The notes under the pieces were generated by a model, which was not told where the DNA came from, did not search any database, and saw only the letters and a program-made list of their open reading frames with translations. A DNA stretch of 64,000 bases from Mobula hypostoma (taxonomy: Eukaryota): positions 52,826,001 to 52,890,000 of the forward strand of contig NC_086108.1 of the NCBI RefSeq assembly GCF_963921235.1, read 5' to 3'. The position numbers were made by a program, and so were the translations under genes. Shown here piece by piece: positions 10,921-17,269 of this stretch. Positions within the stretch are counted from its first letter, which is position 1; the number at the start of each line of letters is the position of its first letter.

Positions 10921-12325
10921 GCATCAAGACCACCTTTAAAAAGTTTCTGACAACTACCACCTGCATATCACCTATGGAACCAGAACACCCAACACACTTG
11001 ACCACTGTTATACTACCACCAAGTACGTTTACAATACCATCTTATGCCAGCTCTTTGGAAAGTCCAATTACCTGACTGTACTTCTAGTCCTGTCGTATAG
11101 GCAGAGACTAAAGCCCACAGCACCTGTGGTGAGGACCAAGAAAGTATGGTCAGAGGAGGTGGAGGAGCACTTACAGGACTGCTGTGAGTTGGTGGATTGA
11201 CAATATTCAGGGAGTCATCTTCAAATCTGAATGAACACGTCACAGTTGTCACCGGCTTCATCAAGACCTGAAGATGAGTGTGTGCCTTTGAGAGCATAAT
11301 GGCCACACCCAAACCAAAAGCCACAGGTGAACCAGGAGATTCATAGTCTGCTAAGGGCTAGATCTGTGGCATTCAAGACCAGTGATCCAGAACTATACAA
11401 GAAATCCAGGTATGACCTACACAAGGCTATTTTAAGAATGAAAAAAAAAACCCATTTGAGGTTAGGGACAGAATTGGATGCACTGGCAGGGTTTTTACTT
11501 CCTACAAGGTGAAACCTAACATTATGAATGGCTACGAGGCTCTATTCCCAGATGAGCTAAATGCCTTTTATGCGCGCTTTGAAAGGGAGAATAAAACTAC
11601 ACCAGTGTGAATCCCTGCAGCATCTGGCGACCCTGAAATCTCTGTCTCAGAGACTGATGTCAGCACATCTTTCATGAGGGAGAACCCTTGCAAAGCCAGG
11701 CCCTGGTGATGTACCTGGTAGGGATCTGAAAACCTGTGCCAACCAACTGGCAAGAATGTTCAAGGACATCTGCAATCTCTTACTGCTGCAGTCATAGTTT
11801 TCCCTACCTACTTCAAAAGGGCAACAATCATACTAATGCCCAGGAAGAACAGGGTGAGCTGCCTCAGTGAAAATTGCCCAGTTGCATCTACTGTGATGAG
11901 ATGCTTTGAGAGGTTGGTCATGGCAGAATCAACTCCTGTCTAAGCAAGGACCTGGACCCACTGCAATTTGCCTACTGTCACAACAAGTCTACAGCAGATG
12001 CAATCTTACTGGCTCTCTACTTGGCCTTGGATCACTTCAACAATAGAAATTCCTACATCAGGCTGCTGTTTATTGTTTACAGCTCCGTGTTCAACACCAT
12101 CATACCCTCAGTACTAATGAACAAGTTTCAAATCCTGGATCCCTGTACCTCCCTCTGTAACTTGCTCCTTGACTTGCTCATTGGGAAACCACAGTCAGTG
12201 CAGGTCGGAAATAACATCAGCACCTCGCTGAAAGTCAACACTGGCACACATCAAGGGTGTGTGCTTAGCCCACTGCTCTACTTTCTCTACACCTGTAGGC
12301 ACAGCTCCAGCACCTTCTATAAATT

Positions 12326-13011
12326 AGGAGGGAGGAGAAGATGGCAGTGTGCGCAGCCATTTTGGTGATGATGTCTGTTATCTGTCAAGTAGGGGACCAT
12401 GCACAATTCTGATTTGATGGAGACAGACATGAGAGCACGGAGGAACATCTGGAAAACTTCTGAAATGCCCGCTTCGCTGTCGCTGCTACTGTGTGGTAAC
12501 TGGAATCTTCAGAGCTGAAAGCCCTGAAATTCTCGGCTTTGCGTGTTTCAGCGGCCAGGGAGAGGTCGAAGGCTGTCAGCAGTGGATGGCGCTCGGGAGA
12601 CTGTATCGGAGAGGCTGGTCAGAAGCTCGAAGTTTTCGGACAGATGGACTCAGTGTCAGCTGTGGTTGGCTGCTTCCAAGGCATCGGCAAGTTGACGGTG
12701 CCTGGAGGTTTATGGCAGGGAGTTTCTCCCTTTTGCCGCCTGCTATCGGGGACTCAGGAGTTGATCGACTCGGGTACTTTGAGACTTTTTTTTTACCGTG
12801 CCCATGGTCTGTTCTTCATCAAATTATGGTATTGTTTTGCACTGCTGTAACTATATGTAATAATTATGTGGTTCTGTCAGTGTTAGTCTTTGGTTTGTCC
12901 TGTTTTCTGTGATATCACTCCGGAGAAACATTGTATCGTTTCTTAATGCACGTATGCATTTCTAAATGATAATAAAAAGAGGATTGAGTGTTCTCATAAT
13001 CTAATCTAATC
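12326..13011 (+). mobile_element. ~690-bp non-autonomous retroelement (copy 1)
   Basis: Starts AGGAGGGAGGAGAAGATGG and ends AATAAAAAG...(TAATC)n. Splits the Rex1 RT at YK/F-ADD. A near-identical reverse copy lies at 28149-28830. Confidence 0.85.
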
Positions 13012-13856
13012 AGCTAATGACACAACTGTTGTTGGCAGAATTTCAGATGGTGATGAGGAGGCAAACAGGAGTGAGATCGATCAGCTGGTTGAGTGGTGTC
13101 ACAACAACAACCTTGCACTCAATGTCAGTAAGACCAAAGAACTGATTGCAGATTTCAGGAAGTGGAAATTGAGGATATACACACCAGTCCTCATCGAGGG
13201 ATCAGCAGTAGAAAGGGTGAGCAGTTTCAAGTTCCTGGGTGTCAACATCTCTGAAGATCTACCCTGCGCCCAACATATTGATGAAATTACAAAGAAAGCA
13301 TGATAATGGCTATATTTCATCAGGAGTTTGAGGAGATTCAGTATGTCACCAAAGACTCTCATTTTCTCTTCGGCATTCTTCTATCTGGCTTCACAGAGCC
13401 CGAGGAGGTGCCAGTTGTATCTTTCCATCTCATGCGTGAGTTCCTTGAGTTTCCCTGCTTGGTTCAGCGTTCTTACATTCCATGTAGCGATTGTGATGTT
13501 CTCTCTGCCACAGATATTCTCTCTGCCATGGATCTTCTGTGTTGAATCACCAGTAGCACATTTATCGCGTCCGCCCTGGTGCGAGATGGATAGCACGGTC
13601 ATTGGTAACCCGGGCTGTGACCGATCCGCTAAGAAGTTGCTTTTTGGTGTGCTCATCGTGCGGGCGTGTCTGGGGCATCTGAAACCTGGCGGAGCCCATC
13701 CCTCTCCAGGTTTGACCACAGCCGATTTCCTCCAACTAGGTGGCTTGCCTTGGTCGTGAACACGTGGCCGTTATAGTTCATCTGAGAACCTTTCCGTCCC
13801 GGCCAGTGACATCATCATGGAAGTCATTCGCCCAGTGGTGCCGTGTTAACACCACC

Positions 13857-14033
13857 CCCTCACGTGTTTTAGCCCGCCAGCTGAAGTGGTTTACCTGGGT
13901 ATGGCGCTTGGAGCCACCTCGCGAGGGATTTAGGAGATGGATGAGGACCGATGATGCTCGTCCACCCTGTTTGGTAGGGAGCAGGATGCCAGACATCAAA
14001 GGTACTACCTCTATCCAGAGCCCCCTATACCCC
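13857..14033 (-). ncRNA. HDV-like (nested double pseudoknot) ribozyme at the RTE 5' end
   Basis: P1 GGGGUAU (14033-14027) / AUACCCA (13902-13896). P2 CCCUCGCGAGGU (13927-13916) / AACACGUGAGGG (13868-13857). P3 GGC/GCC with L3 UCCAAGC. P1.1 GG (13895-13894). J4/2 CUAA with putative catalytic C at 13872. Confidence 0.85.
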
Positions 14034-16709
14034 ATGAAAATGGCATAGGGTTCCTCGTCAACAAATCCATCAAGAACGCTGTCCTAGGATGCCAACCAGT
14101 GTCAAGCAGGCTCATGACCATCCGCCTGTGAGCAAAGCCATTCAACATCACAGTGGCACAAGTCTACGCCCCAACAACAGACTATGACGATGAACACACT
14201 GAAGAATTCTATAAGAAACTACAAGATGTCATCGACAAGGTGGACAAAAAAGATATTTTGATCATTCAGGGTGACTGGAATGCCAAGGTGGGCAGAGACG
14301 CACAAGATGATTGGGGAGATCTCATCGGCCCCTCATGCAATGACACCTCCAATGAGAGGGGACTATGCCTGCCAGAATTATAACAATATGGTGCTTTCGA
14401 ACACACTTGGAGAGCACCAAGCATCCCGAAGATGGACCTGGCATGCCCCCAGTGGTCAACATCACCAGATTGACTACATCCCAGTGCAAAAATGGCACAA
14501 ATCTGGTGTGAACAGATCGAAGACCAGAACATTCCCAGGAGCAGACGTGGGCAGTGACCATGACCTTGTCATGGTGAACATCAGAGTGCGCTTGAGGAGA
14601 ATCAACAAGTCAAAAAACAGCCGGCTGAGATTTGACCTTGAAAAACTGAAAGACCCCACCATCTCTGAAGAATTTCAGGCAGCAATTGGGGGAAAGTTTG
14701 CACCAATACTCCTCCTTGATGAAAACCTGGAGACCATCACAGATAACTTTAACACAGTGATGACGGAAACAGCAAGCAAGATTCTGGGGGAAAGCCACCG
14801 CAAATCTAAACCATGGGTCACTAACAAGATACTGGATATACATGACAGAAGAAGGAAATTAAAGAAAGATAAAAACACAGCAGAGAGAAGAACAAAATAC
14901 AGGAAAATCAACAAGGAAATCAGGAGGGAAATGAAGGAAGCAAAGCAAAGATGGACAGCCGAACAATGTGCCGACATTGAAGACAGCCTCTCCAACAATA
15001 ACACAAAGAAGGCATTCCAACTGGTGAAAGATCTTACCAAAGAAAAACAAGCCAAAGTAAACACCATCCAAGACAAAAATGGCAAAAGTCTCACGGAAGA
15101 AAAGGAAATAATGGAAAGGTGGACAGAGTACTGTTCAGACCTGTACAACTACCAGAGCAAAGGGGATCCAAGCGTGCTGAATGTGCAGGAATCTTCCAAT
15201 GAGGATGACTATCCAATCATGCATGAAGAAGTTGAAGCTGCAATACGATCACTGAAGTGCAGGAAGTCAGCAGGAGCTGACAACATCCCTGCTGAACTGC
15301 TGAAGCATGGAGGAGAGGCCACGAAGGACATGCTTACCACCATCTGCAATAGGATCTGGCAGGCGGGTGAATGGCTGACACCTTGGACTCAGTCGCTGAT
15401 CATTGTGCTTCCCAAGAAAGGCAATCTCCAACTTTGCCAGAATTACCGTACCATCAATTTAATCAGCCATGTAAGCAAGGTAATGCTCAGAATCATCTTG
15501 AACAGACTGAGACCTCAGGCAGAAGACATCATTGCTGAGGAACAAGCAGGCTTCCGTAAGGGCAGAAGCACCACTGAGCAGATTTTCAACCTTCGCACCC
15601 TCTGTGAGAAACACCTTCAGCACCAGAGAGAGTTCTACCACGTCTTCATAGACTTCAAGAAGGCATTTGATAGAGTCTGGCATGATGCCTTATGGGCCAC
15701 CATGAAGAAATTCAACATGGGGCAGAAACTGATTCATACAATCCATCAGCTTTACGCCAAGGCAACCAGTACAGTACTCACTCAGGACACCATCCGGGAG
15801 TGGTTCCACACCTCTGTAGGAGTCTGTCAGGGCTGCCTCCTCTCCCCCACTCTCTTCAACGTCTTCCTGGAACGAATCATGAGTGTTGCCCTTGAAGATC
15901 ACATGGGTACAGTCAGCATCGGAGGGAGGAACATCACAAACCTAAGATTTGCTGACAACATTGATGGACTTGCAGGAAAAGAGGATGAACTGGCCAACCT
16001 GGTCAGCCATCTTGACAGAGCCTCCACAAAGTCTGGAATGGAAATAAGTGCCGAGAAAACCAAGCTCATGGCAAATGCCAACAGTGCCATCACAACAGAC
16101 ATCTCAGTCCATGGTCAGAAACTTGAGACAGTGCAGCAGTTCAAATACCTGGGGGCAATCATCAGTGATGAAGGATCAAGACCAGAAGTGCTGGCAAGAA
16201 CCGGACAGACAATGACTGCACTATCCAAACTCAAGACAATATGGAGGGACAGCAACATCACCATGAAGTACAAGATCAGACTCCTGTGTGCATTGGCATT
16301 CTCCATCTTCCTGTACGCATGTGAGACGTTGACCCTCACAGCAGAGCTACAGAGGAAGATACAGGCATTGGATATGAGATGCTATCGCAACCACTTGGGC
16401 ATCTCATACTTGGACCACATCACAAACCAGCAGTTCTGCAAGACCATCCAGCACCACATTGGCTCCCATGAAGACCTTCTCACAACGGTGAAGAAAAGAA
16501 AGCTGAGATGGTACGGCCACGTAACAAGATCCAGTTGTCTTGCAAAGACCGTTCTACAAGGAACTGCGGAGGGGAAAATAAGGAGAGGTAGACAGAGGAG
16601 AAGATGGATGGGCAACATTAAAGAATGGACAGGGAAAACATTTGCGGTGACCCAGGCTCTGGCACACAACTGCAACAGAAGGAACAGACTGGTGCAAAGC
16701 TTGTCATGA
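14033..16709 (+). pseudogene. RTE APE-endonuclease/RT ORF, lightly damaged
   Basis: Track ORFs 14153-14383 and 14271-16709 (812 aa). TGA stop at 14129, frameshift near 14375, and catalytic FADD reads FADN (15948-15959). Confidence 0.9.
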
Positions 16710-17269
16710 CAGCACCCCGACAACTCCACCAGGAGTTAAGGGCGCAAGGCAAGACAAGGCAAAGACTCTCTCAAATTTCTACAAATGTACCGTGGAGAGC
16801 CTTCTAACTGGTTGCATTACCATCTGGGATGGAAGGGTCACTGCCCAGGATCTGAAAAATCTGCAGAAAGTTGCAAGTTTGGCCAGCTCTATCATGGGCA
16901 CTAGCTTTCTCAGCTTCGAGTGCAGATTCAAAAGATGATGACTTAAAAGGGCAGCATCTGTTATTAAGGACCCCCTTCACCCAGGACATGCTCTCTTCTT
17001 ATTGCTACCATCAAGGAGGAGGTACAGGAGCCTGAAGAAAAAACATTCAACATTTTAGGAACATCTTCCCCATCGCCATTAGATTTCTAAATGGACAATG
17101 AACCCATGTACATTATCTCAGTATTTTTTTTCTTATTGCACTACTTATTTAATTTATATTATTGTAATTTATACTTTTTTTTATTATGAATTACAATGTA
17201 CTGCTACTACAAAACAACATATTTTACAATATGTGCCAGTATTGTTAAACCTGTTTCTGATTCTGTATT

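Follow-up and report, generated by a model that had tools for sequence, protein, structure and literature searches.

An HDV-like fold at the 5' end of an RTE-type LINE family and at the breakpoint of a 5'-inverted copy: a predicted ribozyme of the drz-Agam-2 type

HDV-like ribozymes at the 5' ends of RTE retrotransposons are established (PMC6765202, PMC3774820). PMC3774820 places the cut at the 5' junction, and PMC6765202 describes the elements that carry such ribozymes as promoterless. The best match to the present case is drz-Agam-2 of Anopheles, whose fold includes a P1.2 helix and a P2 of 12 bp and for which P1.2, the extended P2 and short linkers were shown to speed up the reaction (Webb et al. 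2016, PMC4908430); its link to RTE goes back to Ruminski 2011, as cited in PMC6765202, PMC3774820 and PMC5786205. HDV-like ribozymes have already been recorded for lamprey (PMC8256844). The literature covered, which leaves aside Ruminski 2011, Webb 2009, Webb and Luptak 2011 and the supplements, yielded no RTE ribozyme from cartilaginous fish, nothing on the family described here and nothing on inversion breakpoints at a ribozyme site.

Here we describe a fold of this kind in the window, that is, the whole 64-kb stretch of DNA that was analysed, from a genome of 3.48 Gb. The original prediction had claimed a full HDV topology on the minus strand, and direct reading of positions 14033-13856 bears this out: all HDV-like elements are present in the order of a nested double pseudoknot (P1, J1/2, P2, P3, L3, P3', P1', GG, P4, J4/2, P2'). 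The 5' strand of P1 (GGGGUAU, 14027-14033) begins with G1 at 14033, the predicted cleavage site, and its 3' strand (AUACCCA, 13902-13896) is followed directly by the GG of P1.1 (13895-13894; 13894-13902 together). Between P1 and P2, J1/2 (13929-14026) consists of a 98-nt hairpin, P1.2, with linkers of 1 nt and 3 nt in the majority fold. The extended P2 (5' strand of 12-13 nt at 13916-13928, 3' strand at 13856-13868) contains 12-13 bp with a G.A and an A.A mismatch, in agreement with the 12 bp and two mismatches proposed originally. P3 (GGC/GCC) and L3 (UCCAAGC, which contains the CC of P1.1) occupy 13903-13915, P4 lies at 13874-13889, and J4/2 (GCUAA, 13869-13873) provides the predicted catalytic C at 13872. 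The short P4 and long J1/2 of the original prediction are both there, except that P4 holds a single A.C mismatch, by which it deviates from the CCGC/GCGG of the family, and that J1/2 turned out to be the P1.2 hairpin. Immediately 3' of P2, a small hairpin was noticed on the minus strand (13835-13855); a contig from a different organism, diverged in sequence (X7; its loose end lies at L010:1679), appears to retain this post-P2 hairpin with altered bases.

The fold resembles drz-Agam-2 in its nested double-pseudoknot core and in its location at the very 5' terminus of a LINE without site specificity; judged against the text of PMC4908430, it also shares the stable, structured J1/2 (P1.2), the P2 of about 12 bp and the short linkers. 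Unlike drz-Agam-2, it comes from a large-genome host, probably a cartilaginous fish, and the ribozyme is a predicted one; the two are likened by build and not by direct sequence comparison. The family opens P1 with G1-C, and not with the G.U that is the first P1 pair of HDV itself.

Thermodynamic folding recovered part of this structure. The P1.2 hairpin gave z = -2.5 in the window copy and -2.4, -2.2, -2.0 and -0.5 in four other copies, and the MFE z-score of the whole region was -1.4. The nested-only MFE fold, a method that cannot model pseudoknots, contained P1.2 and P2 and not P1, P3 and P4, whose pair probabilities were at or below 0.11; a competing nested fold buries the J4/2 region. The DNA was also scanned, as originally proposed, with an HDV descriptor, a home-made one whose first, stricter P4 rule missed the window copy because its P4 holds the A.C mismatch and was relaxed after that was seen. 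With the relaxed rule, a single match was found on both strands of the window (G1 at 14033, C at 13872), and 20 dinucleotide-shuffled whole windows gave 2 matches (0.1 per window). When the 669-nt inverted arm described below was shuffled 5000 times, a match of any kind appeared in 2 shuffles and one beginning at nt 1-4 in 0. The family majority sequence satisfies the strict descriptor, and individual copies pass the relaxed version in 16 of 48 cases and the strict one in 6 of 48. The Rfam models did not recognise the fold: neither the region nor an intact copy gave an HDV-type match with E up to 10, probably because the 98-nt J1/2 defeats these models, which would reflect library coverage rather than a defining property. 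Scans of contigs from metagenomes (5 loci), viruses (0 loci) and prokaryote genomes (17 loci, which are contaminants) brought up neither a descriptor match nor a close relative that includes a 5' UTR, and two other RTE-like families from a protein search (L116 and L117) had no descriptor match at the 5' end. L117 (G000:C36:131598500-131604300), whose product is 33% identical to P0101, has a structured 5' UTR, located some 200-450 nt ahead of the ORF match, that falls outside the HDV descriptor. An apparent HDV-like core was seen by eye upstream of the ORF in a eukaryotic RTE-like contig from a bacterial MAG (L136:100-230), where the descriptor was negative.

The predicted ribozyme is part of a single insertion (13367-16759) into an older LINE, whose reading frame resumes across the insert (…SMSPKTL / KTLSNFY…). 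On the plus strand, an 11-bp target-site duplication, CAAAGACTCTC, stands at 13350-13360 and as an identical string at 16760-16770; the initial bases of the left one are shared with the tail repeat on the right side. The host element (11910-13360 and 16760-17060) is another decayed LINE, presumably of the Rex1/CR1 group judging from its motifs, and a further insertion was noticed within it at about 12400-13000. BLASTN against full-length family copies, which measure 3.3-3.4 kb, resolved the insertion into two arms with about 52 nt missing between them. The inverted 5' arm (13367-14033, minus strand) corresponds to element nt 1 to about 667 and comprises the predicted ribozyme, the 5' UTR and the start of the endonuclease ORF. 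The non-inverted arm (14034-16759, plus strand) comprises the remaining, broken endonuclease region, an RT domain (Pfam RVT_1, E 4e-38), a short 3' UTR and a (GCAAG)n tail; proteins related to its product are 51-71% identical, many of them with Exo_endo_phos and RVT_1 domains. The RTE clade is defined by a single ORF with APE endonuclease and RT, a length of about 3.3 kb and a short 3' UTR that ends in a simple repeat. All of these features were found in the present element, and the clade to which we take it to belong is assigned from this architecture and from familiar motifs, not from an RT tree. A single ORF is stated for RTE in PMC8501958.

At the junction of the two arms, the plus-strand CAT codon of HENGIGFLV begins at 14033, the same base as G1. 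Since full-length copies read ...AACAGA-C-ATGAAAATGG at this point, the C at 14033 fits both arms and constitutes a 1-nt microhomology, in accordance with the one-base overlap that had been noted in the original prediction. Inverted 5' arm, forward 3' arm, small deletion, junction microhomology and flanking target duplication together correspond to the two-arm geometry of twin-primed L1 insertions as described by Kojima 2010 (PMC2912911). Unlike the L1 case, the element is of the RTE type, and the inverted arm reaches the first bases of the RNA in four of eight inverted copies.

The fold of the window copy was compared with that of its family. The catalytic C is retained in 48 of 48 copies. 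The family opens its 7-bp P1 with a G1-pyrimidine pair: of the same 48 copies, 26 have G-C as their first pair and 12 have G.U, and G.A is confined to the window copy. Correspondingly, the final base of the P1 3' strand is A in the window copy and C in the majority sequence, which retains the proposed pairings and restores both the G1-C pair and P4, and whose P2 carries a U.C mismatch close to its top. Because only 17 of 390 positions differ from the majority, the defects of the window copy, including the G1-A mismatch noted in the original prediction, are most simply read from the sequence as changes after insertion. Elsewhere in the family, A or T replaces G1 in 10 of the 51 copies that have GGG at nt 2-4. 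A distinct older subfamily with the P2 variant of the window copy was considered and rejected, with 2 copies only.

A loose end among contigs from other organisms carries the same ribozyme core with an insert in L3, and a gapped pattern found 96 L3-insert sites in the present genome, 30 of which were retrieved. These sister short families (L172-L201) have P3, P1', P4 and J4/2 in common with the family, carry an L3 hairpin of about 19 nt and often have a doubled P1 5' strand; their P3, P1' and P1.1 GG were imposed by the search pattern and have no evidential value. Twenty-seven hand-picked, mostly well-preserved sequences (12 family and 15 sister copies) were aligned. In the 22 pairs of P1.2 and P4, 90% of the cells were paired, compared with 27-54% in slid controls, and double changes were observed in 7 of the 22 pairs, 5 in P1.2 and 2 in P4 (one of the latter in 2 rows only); two pairs of P1.2 do not hold in the sister families. 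The observed covariation score and paired cells were reached in 0 of 500 shuffles, and the observed number of double-changed pairs in 95 of 500. The 27 sequences represent 2-3 related lineages, and each double change counts as about one event. P1, the 5' strand of P2 and P3 were mis-registered between families by MAFFT and were counted by anchors (41 of 48 family rows, 30 sister rows). By these counts, P2 shows one G-C pair replaced by C-G once a 1-nt register shift is set by hand, and P1 shows A-U replaced by the compatible G.U; the catalytic C is present in all 30 sister rows, as the anchoring rule required. The covariation that was originally sought is thus found between families, in P1.2, P4 and P2, whereas the copies of the family differ among themselves by decay alone, without compensation, and P1 and P3 offered no double changes that could be evaluated. 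As far as these few lineages go, the structure of P1.2, P4 and P2 was kept by compensatory change, which shows selection on structure and not on chemistry.

The 5' ends of family copies were tabulated in three sets. With the ribozyme as query (339 candidates, 40 scored, 30 examined; a set biased towards full matches), 29 of 29 other copies begin at nt 1-5 behind unrelated DNA, among the best of the 339 candidates. In a census based on an exact 26-mer of the ribozyme core (29 matches), 28 of 29 begin at nt 1-15 and one at nt 111. A query outside the ribozyme (67 candidates, 40 scored, 30 examined) gave 29 other long copies among the best of the 67, of which 22 begin at nt 1-9 and 7 are truncated. 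After pooling and de-duplication, the start lies at nt 1-15 in 66 of 70 copies, at nt 1-4 in 60 and at nt 1 in 42; as the original prediction required, copies do not extend upstream of G1. The upstream 30-mers match at 8.5 of 30 bases on average and share no sequence, and a G just before G1, such as a copied cap might leave, occurs in 6 of 41 copies, which is no excess. A target duplication above the score cut-off was called in 17 of 41 two-ended copies and in none of the other 24; 12 of the 17 abut G1 exactly, 3 lie 1 nt off and 2 lie 2-4 nt off. In L123/L156, L144, L165 and L166, the first 7-10 bases recur upstream of G1 as short tandem repeats. Their sequence suggests repeated re-priming at the template end, and such repeats may be the source of the doubled P1 strand in the sister families.

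Within the census, 19 of the 29 copies are elements of about 450 nt in which nt 1-390/394 are joined to the last ~60 nt and the ORF is lost (L002-L030, L143-L171; e.g. L010:1501-1960). They carry their own target duplications of about 11 bp and show two or more variants of the junction (at nt 390 and at nt 394). Their tail is (AAG)n, that of the parent mostly (GCAAG)n, and their build is that of bipartite non-autonomous elements (SIDEs). It is likely that this ~450-nt family, which outnumbers its parent among the sampled copies, is driven by the ribozyme head joined to the terminal ~60 nt. SIDEs of R2 likewise combine the 5' ribozyme end and the 3' end of a parent LINE without the ORF (Eickbush and Eickbush 2012, PMC3414825). 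According to that account they are rDNA-specific and rare, whereas the short family is dispersed with ~11-bp target duplications and makes up the majority of the sampled copies; its switch to an (AAG)n tail also sets it apart from R2 SIDEs and from bipartite RTEs. In L1Tc/NARTc, too, a 5' HDV-like ribozyme, Pr77, is found on an APE-type LINE and on its short derivative; Pr77 is 77 nt long and also a promoter (PMC8256844). For bipartite non-autonomous RTEs, a link with ribozymes was offered by Kojima 2018 as a suggestion only (PMC5786205), and the short family provides a concrete case for the idea that ribozymes account for the tendency of RTEs to give rise to such elements.

Eight inverted copies, including the window copy, were found; the set obtained with the query outside the ribozyme is biased towards near-5' breaks. 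Four of the eight break at nt 1-4, the three besides the window copy being L064 and L080 (nt 1) and L077 (nt 4), all three with a microhomology of 1-2 nt; the other four break at nt 85 (L057), 471 (L106), 485 (L093) and 733 (L100). The coincidence of G1 and the breakpoint is real and recurrent, and shows that the second cDNA ran off a template end common to full-length copies. The original prediction had read the window copy as a fossil record of a ribozyme-cleaved template; that the cDNA ends at the 5' end of the RNA holds, but the breakpoint is the ordinary 5' end of the family and not independent proof of cleavage, because the same end would result from a promoter start or from any other fixed start of the RNA.

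We propose, with a probability of roughly 0.8, that transcription of the element comes from flanking DNA and that the ribozyme cuts 5' of G1, which would set the template end of full-length, short and inverted copies alike. The window copy is a decayed, 5'-inverted member of an RTE-type LINE family, in which the first ~180 bases adopt an HDV-like fold of the drz-Agam-2 type. The RNA of the element would be co-transcribed from flanking promoters and cut by the fold out of read-through host transcripts at G1. Self-cleavage dependent on Mg2+ and on C162 would leave a 5'-OH RNA beginning at G1, with the P1.2 hairpin and the long P2 presumably acting to 'pinch' P1 and P2, as measured for Agam-2 (PMC4908430). 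In the window copy, twin priming would have used one target end at the 3' tail and the other inside the endonuclease region; the second cDNA may then have run off the 5' end of the RNA, and the two cDNAs would have been joined via one shared C.

An internal Pol II promoter that starts transcription at the same base is the alternative that survives best, although we consider it unlikely. Fixed 5' ends alone cannot tell a promoter from a ribozyme, and the compensatory changes speak for structure, not chemistry. The fold could then serve translation initiation, exonuclease protection, binding of the element's protein or back-up cutting, and a ribozyme need not preclude a promoter: L1Tc Pr77 combines the two activities in a single stretch (PMC8256844). 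Against a promoter, the start falls precisely on the base whose pairing partner is the end of P1', the catalytic C and GCUAA have been preserved, most copies lack an extra G before G1, and RTE elements with such ribozymes are, as mentioned, described as promoterless (PMC6765202). It is far less probable that the ribozyme was catalytically dead already during the spread of the family and that the 5' end results from RT stalling or an exonuclease block at the P1/P1.2 helix. The majority U.C mismatch in P2 and the competing nested fold that buries J4/2 would suit such a history; the majority sequence nevertheless passes the strict descriptor, and stalling would not strip the upstream flank so uniformly, with 12 of 17 called duplications abutting G1. 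A chance hand-folding of a G/C-rich UTR, to which the whole-region z of only -1.4 and the failure of Rfam might point, has next to no probability and is largely refuted by the shuffle controls, the compensatory changes between families and the identity of G1 with the family 5' end.

If ribozyme cleavage at G1 is accepted, what is likely new is the extension of RTE 5' processing to what is probably a cartilaginous fish, the mechanism itself being already known. The genomic support is unusually clean: the 5' ends are sharp, target duplications abut them, and compensation is seen across families. More tentatively, and with slightly less than even chances, this may be the first documented jawed-vertebrate RTE family in which an active HDV ribozyme of the Agam-2 type makes the 5' end of the RNA, accompanied by a ribozyme-headed mini-element that predominates, by twin-primed inversions that repeatedly capture the cut end and by L3-hairpin sister families. 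Were this true, the sister families, which differ by the L3 hairpin, would offer a natural series for studying the influence of peripheral helices on the core. RTE elements and ribozyme-headed templates are used as gene-writing tools (PMC13708176), and the compact natural template of 450 nt is for this reason of some practical interest.

The protein encoded at 14262-16709 of the window was also compared with known sequences. Its closest matches, 66-71% identical, are unnamed assembly products, and the named relatives come from marine invertebrates: a crab (64%), a brittle star and a tubeworm. As a protein-level observation, such relatives would fit horizontal transfer.
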